A stretch of 35,131 bases of DNA from a virus (Duplodnaviria > Caudoviricetes), in IMG/VR virus record IMGVR_UViG_3300020044_009476, positions 1 to 35,131 of that record; one strand, written 5' to 3'. Shown here in pieces: positions 1 to 27,864 of the stretch (the first letter of the stretch is position 1; each line of letters opens with the position of its first letter). A program made the translations under genes and the position numbers. The notes under the pieces are model-generated. The model was not told where the DNA came from. It worked only from the letters and a program-made list of their open reading frames with translations, and ran no database searches.

Positions 1-389
1 TCGCGTATCTCCACCACGCGTCTGCAGTCTGCGGGGAGGTCTTCCCGTGCAAGAAGTTTAGTTCGGTGTTCTTCATCGACTGAAGGTGTGTTTATTCCGC
101 GAGTCGCTAGCCAAACCCATATATTCGCGTCTTTGGACAACTGCATTGATATCGTTGAACAGGCGGTGGTGAAGTACACCGAAGAACTGCGCGGAATCTG
201 TGGCGGGTATTACGACGAGAAAGGCGAGTGGAATTGGAACGTATCAAAAGCATCTGAGGACGCGAATATACGGGTTTGGCTAGCGACTCGCGGAATAAAC
301 ACACCTTCAGTCGATGAAGAACACCGAACTAAACTTCTTGCACGGGAAGACCTCCCCGCAGACTGCAGACGCGTGGTGGAGATACGCGA
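1..389. repeat. 131-bp inverted duplication (1-131 = reverse complement of 259-389, one mismatch); likely fold-back chimera at the contig end
   Basis: Direct comparison: the reverse complement of 1-131 is gacgcgaatata(t/c)gggtttggc...gagatacgcga, matching 259-389. Confidence 0.95.
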
Positions 390-1689
390 TTCGTTAGGTG
401 CCGCCAGTGTTAAGAAATTATTTGCGTTGTTCTTCCACCTTTGCCCAGACAATCGGGTTCGGGGGTTGTTTGCGTACTGTGGGGCTGACCGAACTGGACG
501 GTTCGCTGGCCGAGGACCACAGCCGCAAAACATGCCCTCCGGTGGCCCAAAGTTGCTTCGATGCGACAAGATAAGTGGTTGCGGGCACTTTTACCAAAAG
601 AAATTAACCTCTTGCCCGTGGTGCGGAGTAGATGCGGCATTTAGTAACCCAGAAGAGTGGGGTCCGGAAGCCGTAGACCAAGCACTGGTAGTTATCGCGC
701 AGCGTAATTTAAGTTACGTTGAACACTATTTTGGTGATGCACTAGGGGTCATATCAGGGTGCTTACGCGGGCTATTCACCGCCGCTCCTGGCAAAGACTT
801 CATAAGTTCAGACTTCTCCGCAATCGAAGCCGTGGTGTTGGCCGCACTTGCCGGTGAAGAGTGGCGAATGGAGGTTTTTCGCACGCATGGAAAAATTTAC
901 GAGATGGGGGCTTCGCTAATATCAGGTGTCCCATTTGAAGAAATAATGCAGCACAAAAAGGATACCGGAGAACACCACCCATTGAGAAAAACTATCGGTA
1001 AAGTTTCAGAATTAGCCTCAGGCTATAATGGTTGGATAGGTGCGTGGAAAAATTTTGGTGCTGATAAGTTCATGACGGACGACGAAATTAAAAAGGCAAT
1101 TCTTGCTTGGCGCGAAGCGTCCCCTGCGATAGTAGAGCTTTGGGGAGGCCAGTGGAGAAAGCACCCTAAGAAATGGCAGTTCTCACCCGAGTTCTATGGA
1201 CTGGAAGGCGCAGTCGTGCAAGCTATTATGAATCCCGGACAAGCGTACAGTTACCGCATGTTGACGTACCAGGTGCACCAAGATGTTCTTTATTGTCGGC
1301 TTCCTTCGGGGCGGCTTCTCTGTTACCACAGTCCTCGCCTTATGCAATCTACCGCACCACATGGTAATCCAGTGTGGCAGATAACTTACATGGGGCAGGA
1401 CTCAAAAACAGGGCAGTGGGTCCGCGACAGCACGTATTCTGGGAAATTGTGTGAAAATGTGTGCCAGAGCGTGGCGCGCGACATCCTCACCTACTCGATG
1501 AAGAACTTGGAGAAAGCCGGGTACCCAATCGTGCTCCACGTCCACGATGAAATTGTCGCGGAGGTGAACAAAGGTGAGGGCAGCATTGAAGAGTTTGAGC
1601 GAATCATGGCAATTATGCCACCGTGGGCATCCGACTGGCCAATACGTGCGGCGGGTGGCTGGCGTGGCTTACGGTATCGGAAGGGGTAG
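88..1689 (+). CDS. Phage family A DNA polymerase, C-terminal polymerase domain; 5'-truncated, and the first ~14 codons come from the inverted duplication
   Basis: RTGRFAGRGPQPQN; motif A SSDFSAIEAVVLA; motif B RKTIGKVSELASGY; ENVCQSVARD; motif C VLHVHDEIV. Confidence 0.95.
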   Translation: MFIPRVASQTHIFASLDNCIDIVEQAVVKYTEELRGICGGYYDEKGEWNWNVSKASEDANIRVWLATRGINTPSVDEEHRTKLLAREDLPADCRRVVEIRDSLGAASVKKLFALFFHLCPDNRVRGLFAYCGADRTGRFAGRGPQPQNMPSGGPKLLRCDKISGCGHFYQKKLTSCPWCGVDAAFSNPEEWGPEAVDQALVVIAQRNLSYVEHYFGDALGVISGCLRGLFTAAPGKDFISSDFSAIEAVVLAALAGEEWRMEVFRTHGKIYEMGASLISGVPFEEIMQHKKDTGEHHPLRKTIGKVSELASGYNGWIGAWKNFGADKFMTDDEIKKAILAWREASPAIVELWGGQWRKHPKKWQFSPEFYGLEGAVVQAIMNPGQAYSYRMLTYQVHQDVLYCRLPSGRLLCYHSPRLMQSTAPHGNPVWQITYMGQDSKTGQWVRDSTYSGKLCENVCQSVARDILTYSMKNLEKAGYPIVLHVHDEIVAEVNKGEGSIEEFERIMAIMPPWASDWPIRAAGGWRGLRYRKG

Positions 1690-1695
1690 TAAACT

Positions 1696-1977
1696 ATGGG
1701 CTTAAACATCTGTCTACATAAACAGGACGGTACCGACCATCCGCATTGGGACGATGGGAGGTTTGGCAGCGACAGGCAGTTTCCGGCACTAATAAATTGG
1801 GAAAAGACGGAACGCCTGACGAACCGCTACCAAGAAGAGTACGGTTTTAGACCGACTAACATCCCTGAACTACGACTTACCCTTGAAGAGCTGGATTGGG
1901 ATGATAAAGACCGGTACTTGCACTTGCTCGATTTGCTTGAACAAGACCCCACAAGTTATTTGTATTTCAGCTACTGA
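1696..1977 (+). CDS. Hypothetical phage protein (93 aa)
   Basis: ORF directly after pol with a GGGG RBS-like element. Confidence 0.75.
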   Translation: MGLNICLHKQDGTDHPHWDDGRFGSDRQFPALINWEKTERLTNRYQEEYGFRPTNIPELRLTLEELDWDDKDRYLHLLDLLEQDPTSYLYFSY

Positions 1978-1986
1978 GGTGTCCAC

Positions 1987-2154
1987 ATGTTGCGTAGAGC
2001 CTACCTTTGGTTACGCTTCGGCACCATCCGTTCAGTCGTTAAGTCGGTAGATGGCGGTGTGGCCTCCGAGATTGAGTACTTCGGGCGCTTTAATAAGTCA
2101 ATTGGCTACTGGGCGTACGGTTCGTTCGACCCAAGTGGCCCGTATCGGGGGTAA
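1987..2154 (+). CDS. Small hypothetical protein, 55 aa (MLRRAYLWLRFG...GYWAYGSFDPSGPYRG); below the ORF-track cut-off
   Basis: GAGGTG RBS before ATG at 1987, TAA at 2152-2154, fills the operon gap. Confidence 0.7.
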   Translation: MLRRAYLWLRFGTIRSVVKSVDGGVASEIEYFGRFNKSIGYWAYGSFDPSGPYRG

Positions 2155-2160
2155 TAAATA

Positions 2161-2328
2161 ATGCAAGGCGACTTCCATGAAAGGCACGAGGCGCACATGC
2201 GCCGTACACCCCTCCCCCGCTTAGAGGGGGACAGCCCGAAGCCGGTTGTAGGGTACATTTTCACATGTGGCGTATGCTTCGGTGTGGTCGTAATGGCTGC
2301 GCTGTTCATGGCCTTTCATCAATGTTAA
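2161..2328 (+). CDS. Small membrane protein, 55 aa, with one C-terminal hydrophobic helix
   Basis: ATG at 2161 after GGGGG; C-terminus VVGYIFTCGVCFGVVVMAALFMAF. Confidence 0.6.
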   Translation: MQGDFHERHEAHMRRTPLPRLEGDSPKPVVGYIFTCGVCFGVVVMAALFMAFHQC

Positions 2329-2342
2329 GAGGAACCAAAGCA

Positions 2343-2687
2343 ATGACAACATTCACGATTAAACCCGCCCCACGTAACGGTGAAGGCGTGCAGTTATCCA
2401 GGGGCACCGAAGTTATTTCCGACGACGGCGTGAAACTCACCGGGGTTAGTAAAGTTACGCTAACCGCCGAGGTTGGGCGAGACGTATGGCACGCCCAAGT
2501 GGAGGCCACGCACCTGCTCATGCCACCCGAAGGTATCCGTGCAGAGTGCGAAGTGGTGCATAACTTCCCGCACGCCGAGCAACTTATCGCTTCCATCTTC
2601 CGCCAGATAATCGAATACAAACCAACCGGCTTGACGGTCGAGTACGATGAAAGTGGTGAAGTGCTGTTGGGTGTTAAAATCATTTAG
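2343..2687 (+). CDS. Hypothetical phage protein (start re-assigned to MTTFTIK)
   Basis: AGAGGA RBS before ATG at 2343; followed by a terminator. Confidence 0.7.
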   Translation: MTTFTIKPAPRNGEGVQLSRGTEVISDDGVKLTGVSKVTLTAEVGRDVWHAQVEATHLLMPPEGIRAECEVVHNFPHAEQLIASIFRQIIEYKPTGLTVEYDESGEVLLGVKII

Positions 2688-2691
2688 CGTA

Positions 2692-2716
2692 AGGCCCCGT
2701 AACAGGGGCTTTTTTA
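2692..2716 (+). terminator. Rho-independent terminator
   Basis: aggcccc-gtaaca-ggggctt hairpin followed by a T run. Confidence 0.85.
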
Positions 2717-2726
2717 TATAAACCAT

Positions 2727-2755
2727 TTGACAGTGTTGTCAGTAGTGATTAAGAT
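2727..2755 (+). promoter_or_regulatory. sigma70 promoter with an overlapping palindromic operator
   Basis: TTGACA (2727-2732), 17 bp, TAAGAT (2750-2755); TGACAgtgtTGTCA palindrome over the -35. Confidence 0.85.
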
Positions 2756-2789
2756 GGGTGCTACTGACAACTAACTTAGGTGTACGAAG

Positions 2790-3155
2790 ATGTTGGAACC
2801 CGAAGATACAATGACATACCACGTCTCAAAGGCGGACTACGTGCCCCTTGTTTTCTCCTGTGTGGCTGCTTACAACCTGTACCAAGACGAGTACCGTGCG
2901 CTGGTTATTAGGCACTACCGTGAAGAACGTAAAAGAAGGGGGCTTCACCACATAACGGCTTCCGACGAAGACCTGTTCAGGGTCCTCCGGGAGCTAGCCG
3001 CACGTAAAGAAAAACCATTTAAACCCGTAAACGCCGAACGGGGGCTGGAGGTAACCAAAGCGATAAGCCATTACTTGTCGCAGGGGAAGCCAGTGCCCTA
3101 CGCACTCATTGCAGAGCTGCGAGAGGTCAGTCAAGTAAGTGGGGCGGCAACGTGA
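2790..3155 (+). CDS. Hypothetical phage protein
   Basis: First ORF after the promoter; AGGTG RBS. Confidence 0.7.
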   Translation: MLEPEDTMTYHVSKADYVPLVFSCVAAYNLYQDEYRALVIRHYREERKRRGLHHITASDEDLFRVLRELAARKEKPFKPVNAERGLEVTKAISHYLSQGKPVPYALIAELREVSQVSGAAT

Positions 3156-3210
3156 AGTTGGCAAGTCGATCAAAACTGATTTTCATACCATTACGCGACT
3201 GGAGTAACCC

Positions 3211-3636
3211 ATGTTAGAAATAATTTACGACGCAGACCTCGTACAACTGCCGATTCACGAAGACTTCACGTTCTTTGGTGTTCCGCGCGGTGACAACTGC
3301 GAGGTTATTATTGAAGACTTCAGCGTCACCCACCACTTGGCCAGCGGTGACGTGGTTGTCAAGGGGCCACGTATTGGGAACTTCCGACAACATGATCGGT
3401 ACGGGAGATTCACGCCCCGTTCTCAAGGACGCATTGAGTTCATCGTGGCTGTCACACCTGAAAGCACACCGTACATTACGGCACTTCTGGGCTGCGACGG
3501 GCTTTGGGTGTGCGACAAGTTATTCGAGACCCGAGTTTCGCAATTTTTACAACCGCGTCAATCAAAGGGGAACTTTCATAGGGTCCCCGGCTACTACAAC
3601 TTTTACTTTTTAGGAGAACACACCAATGTGGTTTAA
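3211..3636 (+). CDS. Hypothetical phage protein
   Basis: GGAG RBS; overlaps the start of rdgC. Confidence 0.65.
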   Translation: MLEIIYDADLVQLPIHEDFTFFGVPRGDNCEVIIEDFSVTHHLASGDVVVKGPRIGNFRQHDRYGRFTPRSQGRIEFIVAVTPESTPYITALLGCDGLWVCDKLFETRVSQFLQPRQSKGNFHRVPGYYNFYFLGEHTNVV

Positions 3637-4504
3637 CAACCTTCGTATTTACACACTCGCCGAAGCGATCCAAGGCGACGTAGCCGCCAAGCTCGCAGAG
3701 CACCCGTTCACCCCGTGCGCAAGTCTCGATCCGGTTAAGTACGGCTTTGTGCCGCCAGTGCCGAACGGTACCGACTATATCCACGTAGTCAACGGCTGCG
3801 CTTTGATCTGCGCGAAACGTCAGGAGAAGCTTTTGCCTGGCAGCGTGATCAAAGAAATACTGGACGCCAAAGTCGCGGAGCTGGGTCGTCCGGTAGGTCG
3901 TAAAGAACGTAGCACTCTGAAGGATGAAATCATCTTCTCGTTGTTGCCCAAGGCGATGACCCGTTCGTCACTGACCTACGCCTACATCGACACTACCAAT
4001 GGCCGCATTATCGTCAATTCGCCCAATGCCAAACGCGCGGAAGACCTGCTCAGCAAGTTCCGTGAAGCGCTTGGTTCTCTCAAGTGCGTACCTTGGGGCG
4101 TTTCGGAAATGCAAGGCGTTTACGCTTCGGGGGTTGACGCCACTCGGCACCTTACCGGTTGGGTACGTGAGTCGCAGGCGCCGCACCAGTTCAAGTTTGG
4201 TGAAGAAATTGAGCTTCAGTCACCTAAAGACGGGCGCGTCGTACGCTGCAAACGCCAGGACTTGACCGCATCCGAGGTACTTAACCACATTGAATCGGGC
4301 ATGTACGTAAGCAAGCTGGCACTGGTGTGGAAGGAGGCTATCCCATTCGTTGTAGACGGTTCAATGGCTATCAAGTCGGTTCGCTACGCTGACTCCTTGG
4401 GGGACAAGTCAGAGGGTGACGCTTTTGACCAAGATTTCGCGGTGATGTCTTTAGAGTTGCGCAACATGCTGGACGCACTTACGAGGGTAATGCCGTGCCA
4501 ATGA
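3626..4504 (+). CDS. rdgC: Recombination-associated protein RdgC
   Basis: MWFNNLRIY N-terminus, GFVPP, EKLLPGSV, LLPKA, KRAEDLLSKFREALGSL, typical length; AGGAG RBS. Confidence 0.92.
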   Translation: MWFNNLRIYTLAEAIQGDVAAKLAEHPFTPCASLDPVKYGFVPPVPNGTDYIHVVNGCALICAKRQEKLLPGSVIKEILDAKVAELGRPVGRKERSTLKDEIIFSLLPKAMTRSSLTYAYIDTTNGRIIVNSPNAKRAEDLLSKFREALGSLKCVPWGVSEMQGVYASGVDATRHLTGWVRESQAPHQFKFGEEIELQSPKDGRVVRCKRQDLTASEVLNHIESGMYVSKLALVWKEAIPFVVDGSMAIKSVRYADSLGDKSEGDAFDQDFAVMSLELRNMLDALTRVMPCQ

Positions 4505-4884
4505 ACATAAACTGCAAGCATAATGACTCGTGCAATGGTTGCACAAACCGCGCGGTACCCCGAACCATGTTAGGTCTTGGGCCGCGTGTTTGCGTTGAAT
4601 TTGTAACGTGGGGTCGTGAAACTTGCCCTGTTAGAGAGCCGCTTCACCGTCCTTGTCCTTCGCCACCCCCGGGGCCGGACGGAACCCTCACAAACATCGA
4701 CGTATCGACCGCCCCACAACGAATCAACAACATCCTACGTGACTTGGAAGTATCCACGGGTTCGGTGGTGGAAAGTATTGAGTTGCGTGACCTTGACGTG
4801 ACGACGGTGGAATGCCGAGAGCAACAACTCGTGCGCAGCGTTGCGATTGAAATGAAACGCTTGCCCGGTACAAAATGGAGTTGA
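4501..4884 (+). CDS. Hypothetical protein with a Cys-rich N-terminus
   Basis: ATGA overlap with the rdgC stop. Confidence 0.6.
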   Translation: MNINCKHNDSCNGCTNRAVPRTMLGLGPRVCVEFVTWGRETCPVREPLHRPCPSPPPGPDGTLTNIDVSTAPQRINNILRDLEVSTGSVVESIELRDLDVTTVECREQQLVRSVAIEMKRLPGTKWS

Positions 4885-4909
4885 CAACACTGTCAGCAAT
4901 AGATAGTAT
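4881..4909 (+). promoter_or_regulatory. sigma70 promoter with the same palindromic operator as 2727
   Basis: TTGACA (4881-4886), 17 bp, TAGTAT (4904-4909); TGACAacacTGTCA. Confidence 0.8.
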
Positions 4910-4920
4910 GTAATCTCTCA

Positions 4921-4966
4921 GTCACGCACCGTAACACACCGTAACACACCGTAACACACCGTAACA
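4921..4966 (+). repeat. Tandem decamer array (GTAACACACC), about 4.6 copies, first copy degenerate
   Basis: gtcacgcacc gtaacacacc gtaacacacc gtaacacacc gtaaca. Confidence 0.97.
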
Positions 4967-5012
4967 AGAGGGTTTGCAGCCATGTGAACTTACACGGATT
5001 CTCGACACTACT

Positions 5013-5038
5013 AAAAGCCCCCGCAGTGGGGGCTTTCT
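5013..5038 (+). terminator. Rho-independent terminator, possibly bidirectional or leaky
   Basis: aaagccccc-gcagt-gggggcttt; short U tract. Confidence 0.75.
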
Positions 5039-5061
5039 CAAATTACCCTGGAGCACCACCG

Positions 5062-5538
5062 ATGGCCAAACGATTTGGACGTAACCAAAAGCGCGCGATG
5101 CGTCAGCAAATAGCTGACCTTGAGCGCCAAGTTGAGCAGCACTGCGGGTCCTACCAGTACTACAAGTCTGCGGTTGAGTACGCAGAAGAAGTATTGGGAC
5201 GCTACACCGCTGCGTTGCCCCCAAAAGATATCGAACACCGTGTAGACCAAGGACGTTCTATCGATATGCCGTTTGGGGCTCTACGCGAATTTAACTTGGA
5301 TCAAGCAGCGGTTGTTACGAAGGCAGTTCAACGTATAGAAATGGGCATTTACCGCACAGACGTTCAATTCGACGGGTTGCGCAACGAAATGCACGCGGTA
5401 GTAAGAATGCCGTCAGGGCGTGCCTACGCGGCGACCATGATGCTTAAGTTCAAGGTACCGCCTAAAGTCATCGCGCAGCAGCTGGCCTCGGCGCTGGAAC
5501 CGGGCGTGTCGAAAGAACTGAGAGGTGCGCATGTCTAA
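5062..5538 (+). CDS. Hypothetical phage protein (MAKRFGRNQKR...)
   Basis: GGAG RBS 8 nt before ATG at 5062. Confidence 0.75.
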   Translation: MAKRFGRNQKRAMRQQIADLERQVEQHCGSYQYYKSAVEYAEEVLGRYTAALPPKDIEHRVDQGRSIDMPFGALREFNLDQAAVVTKAVQRIEMGIYRTDVQFDGLRNEMHAVVRMPSGRAYAATMMLKFKVPPKVIAQQLASALEPGVSKELRGAHV

Positions 5539-5758
5539 CTACCAACGTGCGTTTAATTTGCTCGTCGCTGTGGTCTTGACCGTACTTCTCAATATTTTAG
5601 ATGGCATCCAAAAAGACGTACCCGAAGCCGTTGCAAAACTCGTGGACGACGACACGGTGCTATCCGCCATGCGCAACGCCAAGTTTGACTGCGAGAAGGT
5701 AATCCCGCGCACCCAAGAGTGCATCTTGGTGTACGACTACGTGGCGGTGAGCAAATGA
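5531..5758 (+). CDS. Small protein with an N-terminal membrane anchor
   Basis: GAGGTG RBS; hydrophobic LLVAVVLTVLLNIL. Confidence 0.7.
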   Translation: MSNYQRAFNLLVAVVLTVLLNILDGIQKDVPEAVAKLVDDDTVLSAMRNAKFDCEKVIPRTQECILVYDYVAVSK

Positions 5759-6282
5759 GCTGCTTTGATACGGTCGTGGCGTTGTGCCCTGTGTGCAAAG
5801 GGCCGGTAAATTTCCAGTCAAAGGCCGATAAGTGCGACCTTAAAAATTACGATATCAACTGCGTTCCCGTAAAAATAGCGCTGGATATCCAAGGTGAGTT
5901 AGGTACGTGCGGCAATTGCGACCGGGAGTATACAATTCACCCTATGGTGCATGTGGCCACAATGCCAATGTACCTGACGCCGCACACCGAAGAGTATTCG
6001 CAAGTAAACCATGAAGACCACTGGTCTGCTGCTGGTAAAACAGTGCCCCCTAAACCAAAAACATGGGACTTGTGGATCGAAGGTTACCAAGCTACAGGTG
6101 GAAGCGGTACGGCGCGGTGTTACGCACGTAACTTACCAGGTGACTCGTTCAAAGACGCCGTTACTAAATTTGCCGCAACTCCGCAGGCCAAAGGCCTTGG
6201 GCTGTTCGACGAAGAACGGTTGAGTTTTTGGGGCTGCCGGGCATTCGACAATGAAGAAGACGCGCGGAGGAACCACGGATGA
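5755..6282 (+). CDS. Hypothetical protein with a zinc-ribbon-like N-terminal domain
   Basis: ATGA coupling; CPVC...CGNC. Confidence 0.7.
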   Translation: MSCFDTVVALCPVCKGPVNFQSKADKCDLKNYDINCVPVKIALDIQGELGTCGNCDREYTIHPMVHVATMPMYLTPHTEEYSQVNHEDHWSAAGKTVPPKPKTWDLWIEGYQATGGSGTARCYARNLPGDSFKDAVTKFAATPQAKGLGLFDEERLSFWGCRAFDNEEDARRNHG

Positions 6283-6530
6283 AGCGCCACACGCACCTTA
6301 GCGTAACCGTTGGCTTCCTTAAGCTGCACTGCGCGGTGAAAGACGGGACGCCGATGCGGTACTGGTACTACATCAAACTCGGTTCGCGTTGGTACCCCTT
6401 TGACGTACGGGCGGTGGCTAAGGCAGCAGGGCACGATTTGCCAGCACTTGACCACGCTGACGCGCAAGAGAACCTTTACAACGTGGCGAAATGGTGCCAA
6501 GGCATCAACGCACAGGATTACATCAAATGA
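6279..6530 (+). CDS. Hypothetical phage protein
   Basis: GGAGG RBS; ATGA overlaps at both ends. Confidence 0.75.
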   Translation: MKRHTHLSVTVGFLKLHCAVKDGTPMRYWYYIKLGSRWYPFDVRAVAKAAGHDLPALDHADAQENLYNVAKWCQGINAQDYIK

Positions 6531-6997
6531 TCAAGATACTTCTAATCTACACGCTTTACTGCATCTGGGTGGTGTGCAACATTTCGGACCTGGTGCTTAA
6601 CCTCGCGGCGTGCGTTACGGTATTCACGATGTGCTTGTTGATATGGGTCGGGCTTCGCAGCAAACCTAAGCTGCGCGTGGTGATTCGCGGCTTTGTCAAG
6701 GGTGGCTTTCAGATAGCGCCGGAAGATGAGTCTGACGAACAGATGTGCCAAGACTTTGCTGAACAGTGCTGCGGGTTTGATAGCTTTGAAGAGGCTCAGG
6801 CTTTTGCTGAGGGGGCAGGTTGGATAGTCGTTAATTATGCACCGTTGCCAAAGAACACGTGCCCCGAGTGTCTGGCGCCACTGCACCCAATCCGCAGTCA
6901 ATTCATCAAGATGTGCGGCTCGTGCGACTACCAAGAGCCTTGGGAGTTGAAGCATGGGCAGAAACCGCTCGTAACTAATAATCGGCAGAAGGGGTGA
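6527..6997 (+). CDS. Membrane protein (two N-terminal helices) with a C-terminal zinc ribbon
   Basis: ATGA coupling; hydrophobic N-terminus; CPEC...CGSC. Confidence 0.65.
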   Translation: MIKILLIYTLYCIWVVCNISDLVLNLAACVTVFTMCLLIWVGLRSKPKLRVVIRGFVKGGFQIAPEDESDEQMCQDFAEQCCGFDSFEEAQAFAEGAGWIVVNYAPLPKNTCPECLAPLHPIRSQFIKMCGSCDYQEPWELKHGQKPLVTNNRQKG

Positions 6998-7000
6998 GCT

Positions 7001-7333
7001 ATGAAACAACTTTACCGCTACTATGAAGTGTCTTACGAAGGTTGCGTATCTATCGTGCTTGAGACATTCCGCGTGGTTAAAGAAACCGATGCGTCGTACT
7101 GGTACGTGCCCAAGCATGGCCCAGACAAGCCACGGATTGTGCGCAAGGGCGCAACGCGCAGCAAGTGTTACGACACGCGTGAGGCAGCTTGGGCGTCGTT
7201 CAGGCTTCGTAAGCGTGCGCAGATCGCGCACATGCGTAGTAAAATCGGCACCCTACAATGGCTGCTGCCGCAGTTGAACGACGAGGCCCTGGCCACTACT
7301 AAAGACTTTTACTACTCAGGGGATGTAAATTGA
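7001..7333 (+). CDS. Hypothetical phage protein
   Basis: GGGGTG RBS; overlaps the thyA start. Confidence 0.7.
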   Translation: MKQLYRYYEVSYEGCVSIVLETFRVVKETDASYWYVPKHGPDKPRIVRKGATRSKCYDTREAAWASFRLRKRAQIAHMRSKIGTLQWLLPQLNDEALATTKDFYYSGDVN

Positions 7334-8181
7334 AGCAATACCTTGACCTATGCAACCGCGTGATCAACGAAGGCGTTTGGGTTACCAACGAACGTACCGG
7401 CAAGCGCTGTCTCACCGTTATCAACGCGGACTTTGAGTACGACCTGCGTGACGGGAAGTTCCCTGTGTTGACCACAAAGAAAGTAGCGTGGCGTCCGGCA
7501 ATTGCCGAAATGCTAGGCTACCTGCGTGGCTACACGTCCGCCGCGCAATTCCGCGCTATCGGGTGCAACACCTGGAACGCCAATGCGAATGAAAACAAAG
7601 CGTGGTTGGCCAACCCTTTCCGTGAAGGAATCGACCACCTCGGGAGGTGCTATGGCGCCCAAGGCCGTGACTGGAAGAACCCCGAAGGCAAGAGCATCGA
7701 CCAGTTGCGTGACGTGTACGAAGATTTGCGCAGGGGTATCGACAACCGCAGCGAGATCATGACGTTTATGAATCCTGGCGAGCGTGACCGTGCGTGCCTT
7801 AACGCTTGTATGCACACCCACACCTTCAGCATTCTCGACGGTTATCTGTACCTTACGTCCTACCAACGCTCGGATGACTTGCCACTTGGCCACGCATTCA
7901 ATCAGGTGCAGGTCGCATGGCTGCTTCTCGTTATGGCAAAAATTACCGGTCTCAAGCCGGGCATCGCGTACCATAAGATCGTGAACGCCCATATCTACGA
8001 AGACCAGTTAGAAACACTGCGTGATGTTCAGTTGGTGCGTGAGCCGCGCAAGTTGCCCACAATGGTGGTACCTGCGGGGCTAAAGACACTGGAAGACCTT
8101 GAGACTTGGGTGCTTCCGGAGCACTTCGAGCTTGTCGGGTACGAACCGCACGATGCAATTAAATACGAGTTCAGCGTATGA
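7330..8181 (+). CDS. thyA: Thymidylate synthase (Vibrio/Shewanella/Pasteurella-type ThyA)
   Basis: MKQYLDL..RTGKRCLTVINAD; catalytic Cys in CLNACMHTH; YQRSxD; FNQ; NAHIYE; ends YEFSV; TTG start. Confidence 0.95.
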   Translation: MKQYLDLCNRVINEGVWVTNERTGKRCLTVINADFEYDLRDGKFPVLTTKKVAWRPAIAEMLGYLRGYTSAAQFRAIGCNTWNANANENKAWLANPFREGIDHLGRCYGAQGRDWKNPEGKSIDQLRDVYEDLRRGIDNRSEIMTFMNPGERDRACLNACMHTHTFSILDGYLYLTSYQRSDDLPLGHAFNQVQVAWLLLVMAKITGLKPGIAYHKIVNAHIYEDQLETLRDVQLVREPRKLPTMVVPAGLKTLEDLETWVLPEHFELVGYEPHDAIKYEFSV

Positions 8182-8549
8182 CCACACTGACTAAAGCTGA
8201 GCGCACCGCTCAATTCCTACGTGCGGTAGAGAACGCCAAAGCGACCCTAGTACCTGGCGACGTGCTAATGGTAAAGCGTTGCGGCGGGTTGAAGGTACGG
8301 TACGTGTTTAAGAGCTGGGACGGGAATTGGGCGACATCGATCATGCGTAACGACATCGCCGCCACGGGATTTACAAGGTCAACGGTAGGTTGGTTGACTT
8401 CACTTCACATACGGTGCTATCAAATCCTGCAGCGTCTCAAGTCTAGCTTTACAAATATGGTACTTGTGGTAGTTCGACGTGGTTACATCCAGTGCATCCG
8501 CGTCGTCTACCCCACTTTGTCCAGATCCGGCAGGCGTTCCATCAATTGA
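8178..8549 (+). CDS. Hypothetical protein; possible frameshift near 8365, in which case the true end may be 8446
   Basis: ATGA coupling with thyA; as read, it overlaps the convergent Rz gene by 150 nt. Confidence 0.5.
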   Translation: MTTLTKAERTAQFLRAVENAKATLVPGDVLMVKRCGGLKVRYVFKSWDGNWATSIMRNDIAATGFTRSTVGWLTSLHIRCYQILQRLKSSFTNMVLVVVRRGYIQCIRVVYPTLSRSGRRSIN

Positions 8550-8885
8550 GACGGCACCTGGATCTTCGGGCAATCCCGCAGCGGCTCGGTTGTGGATGCG
8601 CACCCACTCAGAATTAAGCTCGCAGCGATTAACAACACGCTCACGATACTTGACGACTTCTTTAGTAACGATTTTATCAACATAAACTATTTTCTCCACG
8701 GTTTGTATATGCGCGTCAGTAATAGTGGCAACGCGCGTGTCTTCTTTTTCAGCCGCTTGTACTGCACTCTCCGCTTTCTCCGCACGTAACTTAAAATCGT
8801 CACGCTCGTCAATCACAGTGGAGTAATGCCACCCAATACCTGCGGTGGCGGCCAGTACGGCAAGTCCTAAATATAAACGTATCAT
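8400..8885 (-). CDS. Rz-like inner-membrane spanin (i-spanin)
   Basis: N-terminal TM helix, coiled coil, periplasmic Cys residues; embedded out-of-frame lipoprotein gene. Confidence 0.85.
   Translation of the reverse strand: MIRLYLGLAVLAATAGIGWHYSTVIDERDDFKLRAEKAESAVQAAEKEDTRVATITDAHIQTVEKIVYVDKIVTKEVVKYRERVVNRCELNSEWVRIHNRAAAGLPEDPGAVSIDGTPAGSGQSGVDDADALDVTTSNYHKYHICKARLETLQDLIAPYVK
8507..8683 (-). CDS. Rz1-like outer-membrane spanin (o-spanin), 58 aa, fully embedded in Rz in the +1 frame
   Basis: GGAG RBS; MLIKSLLKKSSSIVSVLLIAASLILSG|CASTTEPLRDCPKIQVPSQLMERLPDLDKVG; lipobox LSGC; Pro-rich mature part. Confidence 0.88.
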   Translation of the reverse strand: MLIKSLLKKSSSIVSVLLIAASLILSGCASTTEPLRDCPKIQVPSQLMERLPDLDKVG

Positions 8886-10588
8886 ATTCCACCCATTTTT
8901 AATGTTTCCATCCGGATGACCTGCATTGTCGGTTCGGACACAGATCCGGTGCCGATTGAGCCTGCACCCGAAGTGGTTTCGATGTCGAACGCGGTCGCCA
9001 AGCCGGTAACCGCGTCAACCAGGAAGAGCTCTTGGTTGCCGACGTTATTGGTGACCACACCGGCATCGCTAACCGTCGTCGTCTTTCCGATCACAGGTGC
9101 GTTAGGTGACAGGATGAAGTCCCCTGTAGCCCATCCTGCTGGCAGGTAGCCGGAGGACACGCCGTTGATAGCTTGGGTGAAGCCCCCGGTAACTATGTAA
9201 CTTGACCAACCCAGCGGAGGGTTAACAAGCACATCCGTGGCGCCGGTGCCCGTACCGCCGGTAAGTTCCAGCTCGCGTGTACCTGGACGAGGTACTGTGA
9301 CCCCATCTGCTAATGCAGCCACGGTAATACTCGTGTCGCTCGCAGAAGGTAGTGCCACACCGTCCAAAGTGCCCGCATCGACCGCCGCCGGGAACCCCGC
9401 TACCGTAACGTCTGTTGTCCCCCCTATGCGTACGGTTCCGACGCTTGTTATCTGGCCGATTACAGCCACACTTTCTTCATCAATGGTGAGCGTGTGTGAG
9501 TACATGCTGCCATCGGCGCCGCGCCTTATCCACAGAGTCGTAGTATACGGCAGTGATGGCACCGGGTTTGTGGCGTGGTCAGTACCGTTTAATTCGACTT
9601 TGCCGTCTTGGGAGATTTTGAGGCCAAACGCGGGATTAACGTAGGACCGGTCCGCAGTTGTCAGAGGGTTCCCCGCCGCTGCAAAAGCTTGCCCAAGGTA
9701 CTTATCGTCACCCAGTACAAGGCCTGAAAAGTTTGCCGGTACACCGCTTCCATCGCGCAACTCTTGCAGCCCGGTAGGCACACTAATTGGCCGGGTGATG
9801 CTTGCCGTGTTTGCGCCTTGGGTAAATGTGCCAGACACCGCAGCGGCCGGCAATAAAGGACATAGGCCCCCCTCTGCGAAGTTGCTTAACGTCCCTGTGA
9901 TGTTTACGCCAGATACTGTGCCAGCAATTGTCAAGCCGCCGAAATTTGCGGTGATTGCGCCATCGCTAAAGCCTGTTTGCGTGCCAGTCACCGCAGCGCC
10001 GGGCACTAAAGGATCGGTCAGTGTGTCGATAGAAAATGCGCTTTCGTACTGCGACGTCATGCTGCGGATGCGCCCGCCACGGCTTAGCGTTGCTGCATAA
10101 GTTGGCGTGTACGTAGTGTCGCTAAAATTTGTACCAATCTGGGTAGAGCCGTTCCATAGACTAATTGTGCCACCAGTAGCCCAGCGTATTTCGCGCACTT
10201 GATTGTCTGCGTGTGTCTGTGTAACCGAAGCGCCAACTTGCGCACCCAACTGACTAGCTACAACTCTAAAAAGCCGTGTATTGCCAGTGCCGCTGCTCGT
10301 TAATGCAACATACCCGTTGTTGGAGGAATCTAAAAGAGCGGGGCCGCACGAATTTGTGTTATCAACCCCGAGAGTTACAAATGCTGACCGAGTAATGCCG
10401 GTCAGCACAGTGTCATCTCGCCATATGCTATTGCTAGACGAAGACACCCCTGCAAAATAATTGACTCCGGAGAGATTTACTATGTTGACGTTTGCCGACC
10501 CGACTGTCTGTGTGTACCCAGACGGGGGAGATGCCGGAGATGCCGCAGCAAGCGTGCTGTAGCTTAGCGTTTTTGTTATTAACGGCAT
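8882..10588 (-). CDS. Large Gly/Thr/Ser-rich, beta-rich protein; putative virion appendage or adhesin
   Basis: 568-aa ORF, GAGGA RBS, composition typical of fibre, Ig-like or lectin domains; family not recognised. Confidence 0.6.
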   Translation of the reverse strand: MPLITKTLSYSTLAAASPASPPSGYTQTVGSANVNIVNLSGVNYFAGVSSSSNSIWRDDTVLTGITRSAFVTLGVDNTNSCGPALLDSSNNGYVALTSSGTGNTRLFRVVASQLGAQVGASVTQTHADNQVREIRWATGGTISLWNGSTQIGTNFSDTTYTPTYAATLSRGGRIRSMTSQYESAFSIDTLTDPLVPGAAVTGTQTGFSDGAITANFGGLTIAGTVSGVNITGTLSNFAEGGLCPLLPAAAVSGTFTQGANTASITRPISVPTGLQELRDGSGVPANFSGLVLGDDKYLGQAFAAAGNPLTTADRSYVNPAFGLKISQDGKVELNGTDHATNPVPSLPYTTTLWIRRGADGSMYSHTLTIDEESVAVIGQITSVGTVRIGGTTDVTVAGFPAAVDAGTLDGVALPSASDTSITVAALADGVTVPRPGTRELELTGGTGTGATDVLVNPPLGWSSYIVTGGFTQAINGVSSGYLPAGWATGDFILSPNAPVIGKTTTVSDAGVVTNNVGNQELFLVDAVTGLATAFDIETTSGAGSIGTGSVSEPTMQVIRMETLKMGGI

Positions 10589-10589
10589 T

Positions 10590-12089
10590 TTAAATCCTCA
10601 TTATATGACCGTAAAGACCAACGTCAGCAGCGGCCAACAGCCGCCCGCTAGCATCTACAAGCCCCGATGTTGATGCGCGCAAATTTGTAACTGTTGCGCC
10701 GTTGCCATCAACATCCGACACCCCTGATGCGGAATTAACAAAAACATTACGATCAAAATATGTCATGTTAACCCCATTGTAATTTCGCACAGTTACAGCG
10801 CCTATGGCTGTGCAATGATCAATCCACGTCTCTCTGCTGTCCGCTGCCGCAGATGAATTTGTTGTTATAGCTGTCCCGTTGGACGGACATTTAACGTAAC
10901 AAAAACGAGCGTGCCCACTGGGCGCGGAATACTCAGCGTTATTCATTATGTGCAAAACGCCAAAAACCGTCCCAGCAATAGTCGCGTTATTGTCGTAAAC
11001 AAGATGTCTCAGGTCAACTTTTGAGCCAGCCTTAGAGTGCCAAACCGCTTCATGCAGTGTTGTTTTGTTTGTAGTCCAGACCTGCCGCTCAGCAAGCCCG
11101 AGAACCTCATACCAGACAAAACCCGAAACATAATCACAGTTTACGTACTCGATTTCGCTGAAAAAAAAGTGCGGCCTTTTTGTGCCGTTTGCGCGATCAA
11201 CAAACCAGGCTGCCTCGTTGACCGTTTGATCAGTTATGCCGTAGAGATCAACAAATTTGCAACGCCAAACGGCCTGCCTCGAATAAAATGTTTGATCCGT
11301 GCGAAATACAGCAACATTGCCCCAGCCAGTGAATGTAATACCCTTAACAAACGTATCATTTGTTTTTAGCCTGAATTGCGCCCCTACCGTTGCGTTTGTT
11401 ATGTTTGGGGTCTCGTTTCTGTAATTGACAATCGCAAGCGCCTTATCTGCGTTAATAACAAAATCGCCAACCCACGAATAGTCTCCGCCACGCAAAAATA
11501 AAATTTTATTTTTTGATGGAGAGAGGGTGTCCGCAGACTGGTGAGCATTTATCAGAGACATACAGTTGTTCGCATCACTACCACTGCCATTACCAGTCGC
11601 GGTAGGTGCTGCATAAAATCCGTTATTTCCGACGCTAATATTAATTACATTTAAGATAAAAACACCAGCCGCGTCCCAAATTCCAACGCGTATAGAGTGA
11701 GTGCCTGCGACTAGTGATGGATTGGAAAGTGTGCCGTAGTTTGGATTTAAAACTAAATCCCCGTTTGCGTCAGTAATTAAAAATTCCCCGAGGCTCCAGC
11801 CGCTTTGATTTGATGACAAAATACGATAGCTGTAGGGATAAGCCCCAAACATTGGCCGCACAGGAATATCCATTGGCTCGCCCGTTTGCCAAATGCGATG
11901 GTAGGCATACGGCGAGGTTTCGGAATCTGGCCTCGGGTAGCACATCTCCATTGCGTAGCGGGCAGGACTATAGCGCCCCGCGCTTAAAAGATATGAGGCG
12001 CCTGGCTCTGCATAATCGCTAGCGAGGACTTTATCGGTAGGTCTTTTCGGAATACTTAGCGATATTGCTTGAGGGTTTTGACTGCCCAT
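10590..12089 (-). CDS. Putative right-handed beta-helix (pectin-lyase-like) protein; possible depolymerase
   Basis: YAAPTATGNGSGS...LFLRGGDY capping motif typical of parallel beta-helix proteins, followed by Asn/Cys-laddered strands; GAGGG RBS. Confidence 0.6.
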   Translation of the reverse strand: MGSQNPQAISLSIPKRPTDKVLASDYAEPGASYLLSAGRYSPARYAMEMCYPRPDSETSPYAYHRIWQTGEPMDIPVRPMFGAYPYSYRILSSNQSGWSLGEFLITDANGDLVLNPNYGTLSNPSLVAGTHSIRVGIWDAAGVFILNVINISVGNNGFYAAPTATGNGSGSDANNCMSLINAHQSADTLSPSKNKILFLRGGDYSWVGDFVINADKALAIVNYRNETPNITNATVGAQFRLKTNDTFVKGITFTGWGNVAVFRTDQTFYSRQAVWRCKFVDLYGITDQTVNEAAWFVDRANGTKRPHFFFSEIEYVNCDYVSGFVWYEVLGLAERQVWTTNKTTLHEAVWHSKAGSKVDLRHLVYDNNATIAGTVFGVLHIMNNAEYSAPSGHARFCYVKCPSNGTAITTNSSAAADSRETWIDHCTAIGAVTVRNYNGVNMTYFDRNVFVNSASGVSDVDGNGATVTNLRASTSGLVDASGRLLAAADVGLYGHIMRI

Positions 12090-13962: not shown

Positions 13963-14891
13963 CCCGAGGTCATTACGCGGTCGCCGGTGCCGGAGTACGC
14001 CACCGCAACAAATAGCCCAGCGCCGTAAGTGACGGAATTCCAATTGTTATCCGCAGCGGATGCCCTTATGGTCCAGTTAATACCGTCTGGCGAGGTCATT
14101 ACGTGGTTGCCGGTGCCGGTGAACGCAACGGCAACAAATAGCCCAGCGCCGTAGGTTACAGACTGCCAATCGCTATCCGCCGCCGAGGTACGGATAGTCC
14201 AGTTAATTCCGTCAGGAGAGGTCATCACGCGGTTGCCTGTTCCGCCGCCACCTATTGCTACAAATAGACCTGCACCGTAGGTTACTGAGCGCCAGATATT
14301 GTCCGCAGCTGAAGCGCGGATAGTCCAGTTAATTCCGTCAGGAGAGGTCATCACGCGGTTGCCCGACCCTGTTGAAGAAACCGCAACAAATAATCCTGCA
14401 CCGTACGTAACTGAAAGCCAATTATTGTCCGCAGCTGAAGCGCGGATAGTCCAGTTAATTCCGTCAGGAGAGGTCATCACGCGGTTGCCTGTTCCGCTGG
14501 CAGAAGTCGCAACAAATAATCCTGCACCGTACGTAACTGAAAGCCAATCGTTGCCCGCAGCTGAAGCGCGGATAGTCCAGTTAATTCCGTCAGGAGAGGT
14601 CATCACGCGGTTGCCCGACCCTGTTTGAGCGACACACACAAATAGACCCGCACCGTAGGCTACCCCCTGCCAGCTATTGTCCGCGGCTGAAGCGCGAATA
14701 GTCCAGTTAATTCCGTCAGGAGAGGTCATCACGCGATTTCCGGTACCACTATCGCCTACTGCTACAAATAATCCTGCACCGTACGTAACTGAGCGCCAAT
14801 CATTATCCGCAGCTGAAGCGCGGATAGTCCAGTTAATACCCGCCTGCACTGTGGCTGAGTATACGCGTGATGCAAGAATGCCCATCATCAT
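13959..14891 (-). CDS. Seven-bladed Asp-box (BNR-like) beta-propeller; putative receptor-binding protein
   Basis: Seven 42-aa repeats GINWTIRASAADNxWxSVTYGAGLFVAxxxxGTGNRVMTSPD with the SPDGxNW Asp-box; last gene of the tail module. Confidence 0.8.
   Translation of the reverse strand: MMMGILASRVYSATVQAGINWTIRASAADNDWRSVTYGAGLFVAVGDSGTGNRVMTSPDGINWTIRASAADNSWQGVAYGAGLFVCVAQTGSGNRVMTSPDGINWTIRASAAGNDWLSVTYGAGLFVATSASGTGNRVMTSPDGINWTIRASAADNNWLSVTYGAGLFVAVSSTGSGNRVMTSPDGINWTIRASAADNIWRSVTYGAGLFVAIGGGGTGNRVMTSPDGINWTIRTSAADSDWQSVTYGAGLFVAVAFTGTGNHVMTSPDGINWTIRASAADNNWNSVTYGAGLFVAVAYSGTGDRVMTSG
13962..14840 (-). repeat. 126-bp tandem repeat, 7 copies, encoding the propeller blades
   Basis: Recurring block atagtccagttaattccgtcaggagaggtcatcacgcg at 126-bp spacing. 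Confidence 0.95.
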
Positions 14892-24723: not shown

Positions 24724-25286
24724 AAACCGATGCCCATAATTGACCCTTCGTCAACAAACTCGACGGTGTTCTCGTGCTTACTGCGGATCTCTTTCCACAG
24801 TCTGGGGACTTCCACTGGGGTGTGGAATACCTTCTCGCGCTGGCCGGTACCCACAATATCGTGGAACGCGATCAAAGGCGCCGCACTACGGTAGTTTTCC
24901 CAGTCTGTCTTGACGCCTTTGTATGTATGGTCACCGTCAATCAAAGCGGCATCAAAAGGCCCCTTTGACTTCACACGCTCGACGATTTTAGCGGCGGTGC
25001 TGTCCCCTATAATCACATCAATGAGGTATCCGCGCGTACGCAGGTCGGACGCCGCGTTCTGGAGGTAGTCCCCGCTTGACTTCCTGCCCCATAGGGCGCC
25101 TGGAAGATCAACCGCCAAACCGTAGCTGCCCTCCGGCAAGCTAAGCATGATCTCGTGAAAGGTGTCCCCGTGACGAGAACCGATCTCAAGGTATTTTCTA
25201 ACTCCGCAGTCTTGCAGGTACTTTATGAAGCTGCGCAACTCGAATTCGTTTTGGGAAGGTTTTCTTCCGGAAAAGGTGTTAAGCAC
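24708..25286 (-). CDS. Class I SAM-dependent methyltransferase (Methyltransf_24-like)
   Basis: YLEIGSRHGDT, IIGDS, FDAALIDGDHTYKGV, IAFHDI; GAGG RBS before GTG at 25286. Confidence 0.9.
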   Translation of the reverse strand: MLNTFSGRKPSQNEFELRSFIKYLQDCGVRKYLEIGSRHGDTFHEIMLSLPEGSYGLAVDLPGALWGRKSSGDYLQNAASDLRTRGYLIDVIIGDSTAAKIVERVKSKGPFDAALIDGDHTYKGVKTDWENYRSAAPLIAFHDIVGTGQREKVFHTPVEVPRLWKEIRSKHENTVEFVDEGSIMGIGLCNLR

Positions 25287-25819
25287 AGTATTTCCTCTAA
25301 TTCTGCACGCGGGAAGCACTTTAGCGCGGTTTGGCGCGAGCAGTTAATGATTTCAATTTTAGTTCGTCTGGCCAGTTGGTCGAATTGCCCGCACCAACTT
25401 TCGCATACACTTTGGGTCGGGTTCTGCGTCTTGGGGTGGTCTCCGTGCCAGTGCGCGCCTTTTCGAACGCTGCAATCATACCCTAAAAGAACAATTCTGT
25501 CAGCCCCTTCGGCTTCAGCGAGTTCTATCGCACACAGACCGCTATTCCAGTGTCGCCGAGGATTCTTTAACAGCCCTAGGCCGTACTTCATACTCGCGGA
25601 CATGCTACACGTCCAAAGTTGCGCGGGTATATCAATCTCGCTTTTGTAGGCGTCCCACCATGCTTGGTCGCCGCCAAAAATTACCGCTGCTGACCGTACC
25701 GCTTTCCATGAGCTATTGACCGCTACAATCGGGTGTCCGGACGCTTCTACCGCCGCACAGTCGTCGCGGGTCAGTGACGGTCCGCTGCCAACACAGAACA
25801 CGGTTTTGCCTTGGAACAC
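25223..25819 (-). CDS. Maf/DUF115-like (sialyltransferase-fold) transferase
   Basis: VGSGPSL, IVAVN, NSGLCAIELA, GADRIVLLGYDC, IINCS; GTG start overlaps the upstream TAG. Confidence 0.7.
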   Translation of the reverse strand: MFQGKTVFCVGSGPSLTRDDCAAVEASGHPIVAVNSSWKAVRSAAVIFGGDQAWWDAYKSEIDIPAQLWTCSMSASMKYGLGLLKNPRRHWNSGLCAIELAEAEGADRIVLLGYDCSVRKGAHWHGDHPKTQNPTQSVCESWCGQFDQLARRTKIEIINCSRQTALKCFPRAELEEILCLTPFPEENLPKTNSSCAAS

Positions 25820-26163
25820 TAGAAGCCCCCGAGATTTACGCCTTGCCCGTACGGCGCGGTAACGTACTCTTGGCCACTCTCCGGATCGGGGAGCCAACCT
25901 TTGATGTCGTAAATTTTTCCCTTGTAGATAACACGCTGGTTATCTTCAAGATACGGGCGGGCGCGGATTACGAAGCGCCCCCTTATCTCTGACTGCTGAG
26001 AAGACGCAGACATAAAGTCACGCACACTGAGTGGTTTTAGCGCCGCCGGGACATTAACATACAAGTCTTCCCAATCCTGAATGTCATTGCCGTGCGAGTC
26101 TTTTGTCATCACGGGGGACTGGATAGTGATTTGGTGGTAGCGTAGGTCGCCTGATTTAAGCAT
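25819..26163 (-). CDS. Head closure protein / head-tail adaptor
   Basis: KSGDLR..ITIQ, IYDIKG.LPD..SGQEYVT..GVNLG. Confidence 0.9.
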   Translation of the reverse strand: MLKSGDLRYHQITIQSPVMTKDSHGNDIQDWEDLYVNVPAALKPLSVRDFMSASSQQSEIRGRFVIRARPYLEDNQRVIYKGKIYDIKGWLPDPESGQEYVTAPYGQGVNLGGF

Positions 26164-26548: not shown

Positions 26549-27864
26549 AGCTTGCGCACCACTGTGTTATTGGCGTCACGCCCAGCCTTGACGGCCAGCT
26601 TCCAATCCTGATTGTTCTCACCTGGCTTGGCTTTAGTAGCGGCGACTTGGCAATGCCAGACGCTGCCCGCCCATGTGGCCATATCGCCACGAGTGTACGG
26701 CTTCTCGGACTTAACATCGAATACGCCACGGTACACCGCAGTTGGTGTTACCATCGTCTTCTTGGTCAATTTTCCACTCGCCAAGGACACGATAATATCT
26801 ACGGTGCGTTCGTCAATTTGTTCAACTTCTACAGATTTAACGCCATCTACCACACATTCCCAGCCACGCCCCCCTTCGGTGGTGGCATGGGCGCGCCACA
26901 ACCCGCCATTGTGCGTAGCGTAGGTGTCGCGCAGATACGACTTGGTGAAGTCGATGCCTGGCAAGATATTGATGTCGAGTGCATCACGGCCGTCTTTAGG
27001 AGTTGGGAGTTCAGCCACCAATTCTTTGGCAATTTCCAGCACTACCGGACGTAGATCCTCAAGAGTGACGCTATCGCCCTTCTCACCTTTTTCTGGTGCA
27101 GGGATAGACTTGGCCAACTCATCAATCAGCGGCTTAACGTCCTCGATAGTCACACTGGCGCCGTCACGGCCGTCTTTAGGAGTTGGGAGTTCAGCCACCA
27201 ATTCTTTGGCAATTTCCAGCACTACCGGACGTAGATCCTCAAGAGTGACGCTATCGCCCTTCTCACCTTTTTCTGGTGCCGGGATAGACTTGGCCAACTC
27301 ATCAATCAGCGGTTTAACGTCCTCGATAGTCACACTGGTGCCGTCACGGCCATCTTTAGGAGTTGGGAGTTCAGCCACCAATTCTTTGGCGACTTCGACC
27401 ACTACCGGACGTAGATCCTCAACGGTTACGCTGGTGCCGTCTTTACCATCTTTAGGCGCTGGAAGTGACTTAGCTACTTCCTCAACCATTGAACGTACTT
27501 GCTCAACGTCCACACTGGTGCCGTCACGGCCATCTTTAGGAGTTGGAAGTTCAGCCACCAATTCTTTGGCAATTTCCAGCACTACCGGACGTAGCTCCTC
27601 AACGGTTACGCTATCGCCCTTCTCACCTTTTTCTGGTGCAGGGATAGACTTGGCCAACTCATCAATCAGCGGCTTAACGTCCTCGATAGTCACACTGGTG
27701 CCGTCACGGCCATCTTTCGGAGTTGGCAAAGCCTTCAACTGCGCTTCAAGTTCCTCTACACGATCCGCCAGACGCTTCGTGTCCGCAAGGACAGGCTTGA
27801 GCAGTACTGCGATGGTGCCGCCCAACTGCTTTGCGATCATTTCTAATTCACTTGGAGAGAGCAA
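26545..27864 (-). CDS. Repeat-rich virion protein following the portal gene (possible head or neck fibre)
   Basis: AGGAGGT RBS before TTG at 27864; PKDGRDG and EKGEKG repeats; C-terminal YRGVF..GD..TWAGSVW..WKLAVKAGRD. Confidence 0.8.
   Translation of the reverse strand: MLSPSELEMIAKQLGGTIAVLLKPVLADTKRLADRVEELEAQLKALPTPKDGRDGTSVTIEDVKPLIDELAKSIPAPEKGEKGDSVTVEELRPVVLEIAKELVAELPTPKDGRDGTSVDVEQVRSMVEEVAKSLPAPKDGKDGTSVTVEDLRPVVVEVAKELVAELPTPKDGRDGTSVTIEDVKPLIDELAKSIPAPEKGEKGDSVTLEDLRPVVLEIAKELVAELPTPKDGRDGASVTIEDVKPLIDELAKSIPAPEKGEKGDSVTLEDLRPVVLEIAKELVAELPTPKDGRDALDINILPGIDFTKSYLRDTYATHNGGLWRAHATTEGGRGWECVVDGVKSVEVEQIDERTVDIIVSLASGKLTKKTMVTPTAVYRGVFDVKSEKPYTRGDMATWAGSVWHCQVAATKAKPGENNQDWKLAVKAGRDANNTVVRKL
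26983..27727 (-). repeat. 180-bp tandem repeat, 4 copies (60 aa = 28+32 aa sub-units)
   Basis: Near-identical blocks starting at 27001, 27181 and 27541, plus a variant block at 27361. Confidence 0.95.

Follow-up and report, generated by a model that had tools for sequence, protein, structure and literature searches.

The window analyzed here, the whole stretch of 35,131 nucleotides (35 kb), comes from an uncultured tailed phage and carries on its + strand the genes for a DNA polymerase, an RdgC-like exonuclease and a thymidylate synthase, and on its − strand the lysis, tail, portal, capsid and terminase genes. The RdgC protein is at most 39.5% identical and the capsid protein approximately 53% identical to proteins of cultured phages, and a search by protein for close relatives of the window in viral contigs returned distant ones only. 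The element under study occupies the gap between an open reading frame (ORF) at 4495-4884 and the gene at 5062. This first downstream gene (5062..5538, + strand) has its own GGAG, codes for a 158-aa protein of PHROG 20923, to which no function is assigned, and opens a + strand gene run that reaches 8549 and includes the thymidylate synthase gene. Elsewhere in the window, tandem arrays (126, 180, and 18 bp) lie at 13966-14837, 26984-27726, and 29274-29334 in the tail/portal region, the first 2 inside long ORFs, and an ORF among the head-tail connector genes (25223-25897, − strand) matches a PHROG annotated as alpha-2,3-sialyltransferase (E 2e-54).

The consensus promoter named by an earlier sequence-only reading of this gap is indeed present. 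It is a σ70-type site (4881..4909, + strand; TTGACA-17 nt-TAGTAT) that agrees with the consensus at 10 of 12 positions and is among the 3 best of 15 sites in positions 1-12000; from the usual promoter spacing, transcription is predicted to start near 4915-4917. The palindrome TGACA-N4-TGTCA (4882..4895) lies over its −35 box, and an exact copy is found at the 2728 promoter (2728-2741), again over the −35 box, so that both strong + strand promoters carry it. The pattern has 4 matches in the window at up to 1 mismatch versus 0.96 expected. This suggests that one repressor co-regulates both promoters, with the palindrome as a possible operator. Unrelated viral promoters often show this shape too, and as a means of finding relatives it was discarded: the 120 loci that it retrieved are generic promoters, and by BLAST only one of the phages is related.

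Downstream of the promoter are four perfect 10-bp C/A-rich repeats (4927..4966, + strand; TRF score 80). They produce a self-match run of 30 bases, compared to 13 or fewer in 100 Markov simulations of the window. The array, earlier counted as about 4.6 copies, is real, and consists of 4.0 perfect copies of the 10-mer preceded by one degenerate copy. Next is a 20-base core (4968..4987, + strand) formed by GAGG (4968-4971), a 10-nt spacer ending in GCAGCC, ATG (4982-4984), and TGA (4985-4987), that is, a Shine-Dalgarno (SD) sequence, a start codon, and an immediate stop. The element had been described as having no complete ORF, which is incorrect: it contains this SD-led ATG-TGA (4982-4987), and a GTG at 4984 opens an ORF that runs to 5538. 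A GC-rich terminator-like hairpin (5014..5036, + strand; −16.5 kcal/mol, z −3.85) is located 26 nt past the stop. The terminator proposed earlier is thus borne out as a strong hairpin but not as a strong U-tract, because the tail that follows is weak (UUU, then CUC) and the hairpin was missing from the output of the terminator scan. The bulged stem-loop drawn for the middle region did not hold: 4965-5012 folds at −7.8 kcal/mol with a z score of −0.10, which is chance level, and the minimum-free-energy pairings differ from those drawn.

We looked for the core in other sequences. The sequencing runs listed for the region comprise eight DNA runs with small shares and no RNA run, and contigs from four of them were compared with it. 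A public 249-nt contig matches 4963-4994 at 31 of 32 bases between unrelated flanks, and a 17-mer from this stretch was matched in 8 viral contigs, 6 of which continue with ATG-TAA or ATG-TGA and lie in non-coding gaps. When 2 spacer positions were freed, at least 119 stretches were found (approximately 160 estimated), the chance expectation being approximately 3 on an assumed collection size. Among the matches listed, 98 of 108 distinct core loci (a set that includes one chance genome row) have a terminator-like hairpin within 150 nt. As a control, the 17-mer matches 79 places in 596 Gb of bacterial genomes, where approximately 69 are expected by chance, and such a hairpin accompanies none of these 79 chance matches (123-nt test span). 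In 201 Pseudomonas genomes we found 8 exact and 3 one-mismatch copies of the core (11/201, approximately 5%), and 2 matches to a reversed control pattern with 2 mismatches allowed. In 201 Enterobacterales-order genomes the core is no commoner than the control (2 matches versus 2), its exact form is absent from 401 class-wide genomes, and a BLAST search of 50,697 phage records with the whole element gave terminator-sized chance matches only. Matches in E. coli phage fHy-Eco03 and Erwinia phage SOI901 carry ATA in place of ATG and were left out of the counts.

The core loci are mostly found in early operons of Pseudomonas prophages. In 3 annotated loci a CI-like repressor gene on the strand of the core precedes it by 1.3 to 2 kb, which puts the core in the place of a lambda-like early left operon, and the cultured carriers are Pseudomonas phages SC_8_H2H8_2017, Turba, Meadow, and Lodos. 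Further settings are provided by the loci L502, L236, L336, and L125, of which L236 shares one gene with the window. In L502, the core follows a promoter and a terminator whose loop has a second GCAGCCATG; this terminator-like hairpin is approximately 60 nt upstream of the core at 2001, and its loop presents the sequence as though the 9-mer were on display for recognition. In another locus, L127, promoter, core, and terminator are present but the stop is lacking. A model (R1) built from 47 members, none of them with a window-type core, matched the window at 4956-5038 (24.1 bits, E 7.7e-5), and 2 loci judged to be chance scored 24.2 and 17.9 bits. R1 scores are dominated by the core, so that the match in the window adds little to the pattern searches. 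Because the core recurs in about a hundred other, mostly Pseudomonas-type, phage sequences, the unit of the window likely makes a short RNA. The comparison supports selection on a promoter-to-terminator RNA unit; the discrete unit claimed earlier thus gains support from conservation, although the conserved part is the core, which that claim did not single out.

To define what is conserved after the start codon, we left the codon following ATG free, which gave 114 distinct loci. An immediate stop is present at 92 of them (TAA 61, TGA 25, TAG 6), and CAA, CGA, and TGG never occur there (0/114), though each is a single transition away and would keep the weak hairpin of the core. Of the 22 loci without an immediate stop, 14 stop after 1 to 2 codons, compared to 3 of 44 control frames; 2 more have longer frames and 6 resemble chance matches. 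The rare sense codons after ATG vary (His, Gln, Gly, Lys, Tyr). One otherwise near-identical locus has TAA in Turba and TAG in Meadow and Lodos. Most homologues come from related Pseudomonas prophages and the short-ORF cases from approximately 4 lineages, and therefore these counts overstate independence. The aligned loci indicate that what is maintained after ATG is a stop, whichever of the 3 kinds it may be, and not a particular set of letters. A small protein read on the reverse strand from the CAT of the core (the palindromic CATG) was rejected, because its downstream lengths and residues are random.

The repeats behave differently. No tandem array was found upstream of the core at any of 142 homologous loci, AACACA or GTAACAC is present in only 1 of the 142, and the closest contig, that of 249 nt, has unrelated sequence where the window has repeats. 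A search of viral contigs with a repeat 20-mer returned one unrelated locus (L002:1081-1107): this phage, which is unrelated to that of the window, has 2.7 copies of the 10-mer in a gap that follows a terminase-like gene. In the window itself, the 8-mer CCGTAACA of the repeat lies across the loop of the terminator at 2691-2712, before the 2727 promoter, which could be chance since 1.5 copies are expected in the window. The multivalent C/A-rich 5′ region proposed earlier is therefore private as far as its repeats are concerned, while C/A-rich single-stranded flanks are common to the family: the flanks of the core are 68% to 71% C+A, and their predicted unpaired fraction is 0.6 to 0.7 versus 0.4 to 0.5 for shuffled flanks (99 loci). 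We read the repeats as a local expansion of such a flank. They likely act as a single-stranded stretch for ribosome standby or enhancement, the enhancer role being suggested by the C/A-rich target sites of GcvB, which work as enhancers according to PMC4474525. That the locus has no function, being a slippage array in a promoter-terminator gap beside a chance start-stop, would agree with the look of the repeats, which are perfect and private as after recent slippage and recur as the same 10-mer in L002. It fits the repeats only; the conservation of the core and the constraint on the stop exclude it there, and we give it next to no weight.

The sequence-only reading had offered as possible roles of the RNA a sponge for a G/U-rich host sRNA seed such as R1 of GcvB, a decoy for a protein or mimic of a type III antitoxin, or a put-like antitermination leader for the genes starting at 5062. 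Type III antitoxins are made of tandem pseudoknot units of approximately 35 nt or more that precede a ToxN, AbiQ, TenpN, or CptN gene, and the put RNA of HK022 forms 2 stable stem-loops right after the early promoter. Here the repeat unit is 10 nt, the next gene belongs only to a function-unassigned PHROG, and 4916-5012 folds at z +0.69 without stable 5′ stems. An Rfam search, one of the checks proposed at the time, gave no match on the element: with Rfam 15 at gathering score, none was found on it in 2400-5600 of the window or in 13 homologous or related loci. Thus, the antitoxin and put features are missing, and the ideas of a decoy and of a leader survive in the changed forms discussed below. 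In favor of a sponge, the repeats are real and C/A-rich, and AgvB mimics a C/A-rich target of GcvB R1 according to PMC4474525. However, GcvB was over the Rfam cut-off in none of the 4 core-bearing Pseudomonas genomes analyzed, a result that concerns hosts of the family and not necessarily that of the window, while the E. coli control and an enterobacterial genome both matched. Together with the absence of the repeats from the homologous loci and the control-level occurrence of the core in Enterobacterales-order genomes, this speaks against the GcvB sponge, and as the function of the family the repeat-based readings are largely refuted; for the window we consider them very unlikely. A sponge of the CsrB/RsmZ type, with many GGA motifs in loops, was discarded as well, because the predicted RNA has one GGA (4996-4998); the second loop of the homologues varies as GGNGG.

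We then asked which letters of the core are kept. With the spacer freed, all 11 prophage-type rows from 401 Pseudomonas genomes read GAGG-N4-GC(A/G)GCC-ATG with 10-nt spacing; these rows were chosen by their downstream sequence, and the others are host coding sequence or unrelated gaps. One recurring host row was rejected as the reverse strand of a transporter gene start. Before 1070 host ATG starts, GCAGCC occurs once and GCGGCC 3 times. A 10-nt spacing was observed for 21 of 208 host GAGG occurrences, which is on the long side (mode 7), and GAGG-N10-ATG-stop is found once in 1.6 Mb of host DNA. This indicates that the GC(A/G)GCC letters are not a general ribosome preference of the host and points to a partner that reads them. 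In Pseudomonas members, another SD-like hexaloop is present in addition (L230-L344, alignment A1 columns 96-110); its closing pair covaries (37/37 paired; GC 17, CG 16, UA 4), it reads GGAGG(U/C) with no start codon in register, and the window lacks it. Altogether, the alignments show a cassette under selection across many phages, with spacer length and GC(A/G)GCC kept and C/A-rich flanks.

A partner that pairs with these letters was sought in host genomes. No near-complement or same-sense copy of the core common to host genomes was found, no shared host target or look-alike start among the 150 matches listed of 279, and no common host target among 112 seed matches in 1.6 Mb; the energy-based target scan covered 1.6 of 6.7 Mb of one host. 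In 24 of 26 Pseudomonas genomes, the groEL start is exactly complementary to the invariant 9-mer (the coding part of this complement is common to 26/26), and the complement of the 9-mer occurs in 2 of 1237 gene starts. The element could accordingly be read as an Hfq-type sRNA like LPR1/PreS of lambda, in which GCAGCCAUG would be a seed pairing with mRNA starts such as that of groEL and the stop would only neutralize the AUG of the seed. Its position before the terminator of the early left operon, like that of LPR1 at tL2a in the preprint describing this RNA (bioRxiv 10.1101/2024.10.31.621285), agrees with such a role, as do the many A/G substitutions. Yet the match of groEL to the seed is 9 to 12 bp and ranks 23 to 49 of 1237 start regions for the 6 common cores and 220 for the core of the window, and groEL had been picked after the motif was known, so that the choice is post hoc. 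As a two-site target groEL was rejected, since the second motif ranks at a median of 988 of 1237. Moreover, the invariant GAGG at fixed spacing has no partner at groEL. A pairing seed explains the letters and not the SD sequence; we therefore rank it below the decoy and the cis leader described next, and regard it as unlikely.

Pairing of the core with 16S rRNA helix 34 and the anti-SD, by which it would clamp or modulate 30S subunits, appears more improbable than any of the foregoing readings save that of no function. This is the best site in a 5.4-kb stretch of rRNA operon for the 2 commonest cores, which 3 and 2 of 60 shuffles match, although a coarser step was used for scanning the shuffles. 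For the core of the window, which 13 of 60 shuffles equal, helix 34 is not the best site, and it was likewise chosen post hoc. Helix 34 is paired in the mature subunit.

The ATG-TGA of the window reads AUGUGA, and the overlapping GUG (4984..5061, + strand) begins 26 open codons that run through the hairpin in frame with the 5062 gene. The element could thus be a leader acting in cis, in which start-stop loading would protect an untranslated leader and set the expression of the early genes downstream, termination at UGA and re-initiation at GUG favoring read-through in this phage. Several observations agree with this: the U tail is weak, there is no strong promoter between 4909 and the downstream genes, and RF2-dependent termination-reinitiation at AUGUGA is documented for E. 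coli systems in section 18 of PMC9841429. A relative, P0008, has the same 26-residue extension, which is 84% identical over residues 1-45, compared to 46% for the main protein. This implies that the unit is conserved in P0008, whether as RNA or as codons. In L236 (2501-2900), an HNH endonuclease gene begins 5 nt past the stop and the GUG of the core is in frame with it, a candidate for a natural termination-reinitiation start. On the other hand, among 62 relatives of the downstream protein nearly all have alignments that begin at residue 27, approximately two thirds of the family members have TAA and no GUG, and a GUG read-through frame is not conserved across the family, being short in the 33 TGA members (median 15 codons). 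Antiterminator pairing was not seen in the consensus fold, and the fixed letters of the spacer are left unexplained. We consider the cis leader possible but doubtful.

The reading we favor, tentatively and short of even confidence, is that the unit makes an RNA of approximately 120 nt that would act as a decoy mRNA start. Transcription, ribosome loading, and decoy action are all inferred here from the arrangement of the sequence. The promoter would produce a short RNA that carries the SD/start/stop cassette and ends at the terminator. Ribosomes would load at the SD-AUG and be released at once at the stop, which would clear those that any mimic of a start site draws. A factor whose normal targets are mRNA start sites would recognize the fixed spacer and AUG, and the RNA would soak it up early in infection; this factor could belong to the host or the phage and be an sRNA, an RNA-binding repressor, or a ribosome-linked nuclease. 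In the lineage of the window, the repeats would do no more than extend the open, C/A-rich stretch for landing, and some transcripts would continue past the weak terminator into the genes from 5062. We favor the decoy because it accounts jointly for the SD sequence, the spacing, the letters, the AUG, the stop, the open flanks, and the varied settings. The cassette has its own promoter in the window and lies behind genes in lambda-like early operons, settings that suit an RNA independent of context. Against the decoy, the cassette of L236 leads straight into the HNH gene, a cis arrangement; the partner searches were negative; the SD strength of the window (−6.3 kcal/mol) is average among the genes of the window; the core itself is predicted to be approximately 60% paired and no more open than with shuffled flanks; the window has no second hexaloop; and L127, with promoter and terminator, lacks the stop. 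A more specific form, which we propose with considerable doubt, is that the family is an undescribed class of phage small RNAs, made early by phages of Pseudomonas and other proteobacteria as translation-start decoys that would divert a host factor or a defence nuclease directed against mRNA starts or initiating ribosomes.

The element belongs to none of the named RNA families tested, and it shares one trait with each of the systems closest to it. The Start-Stop sites of E. coli (Meydan et al., bioRxiv 10.1101/520783) are likewise an SD-led start with an immediate stop, and they bind ribosomes; as presented in that preprint, they are 14 sites inside host genes, whereas the phage element is intergenic, forms a promoter/terminator unit, and is conserved letter by letter. 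The bar minigenes of lambda, in the account given in PMC8012679, are phage micro-ORFs that end almost at once, as here; bar is AUG-AUA-UAA and traps tRNA as peptidyl-tRNA, whereas 92 of the 114 start-stop loci have no sense codon and the rare sense codons vary, so that no tRNA is singled out. LPR1/PreS of lambda is also a short RNA at the early-left-operon terminator with a conserved single-stranded stretch; as its preprint describes it, it activates dnaN through Hfq with an 11-nt target motif, while no such target passed our tests for the core, and the description includes no start-stop, a distinction that rests on this description and not on sequence comparison. With the AUGUGA reinitiation sites treated in PMC9841429 the window shares AUGUGA and a GUG in frame with the next gene, but most family members have UAA without a usable GUG, and in the window a terminator hairpin lies inside the GUG frame. 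The anti-GcvB sRNA AgvB, as portrayed in PMC4474525, is likewise of prophage origin, C/A-rich, and a target-site mimic; here conservation does not extend to the C/A-rich repeats, and GcvB is below cut-off in the family hosts tested.

In the literature searched, we found no published description of the element. The phage sRNA review PMC12197685, PMC13285730, and PMC8545117 do not describe it in the sections consulted, and the core 10-mer was unmatched in the supplements of a viral structured-RNA screen (PMC10690425), of which 3 further files may hold the motif. The loci compared here represent a real, conserved, and apparently undescribed start-stop RNA element of phages. Bacterial start-stops have so far been regarded as sites scattered inside genes, of unclear purpose; here about a hundred phage loci keep a start-stop letter by letter while its stop codons interchange. 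Its carriage by cultured phages and approximately 5% of Pseudomonas genomes makes the purpose of a start-stop testable by point mutation in a lysogen, and a phage tactic against translation initiation may thereby be exposed. Such elements are missed both by gene callers and by structure-based RNA screens. One viral contig with the core also has a 6S RNA match over the gathering score (L128:14-123, 57.2 bits), at the edge of the contig and 1.4 kb from the core.
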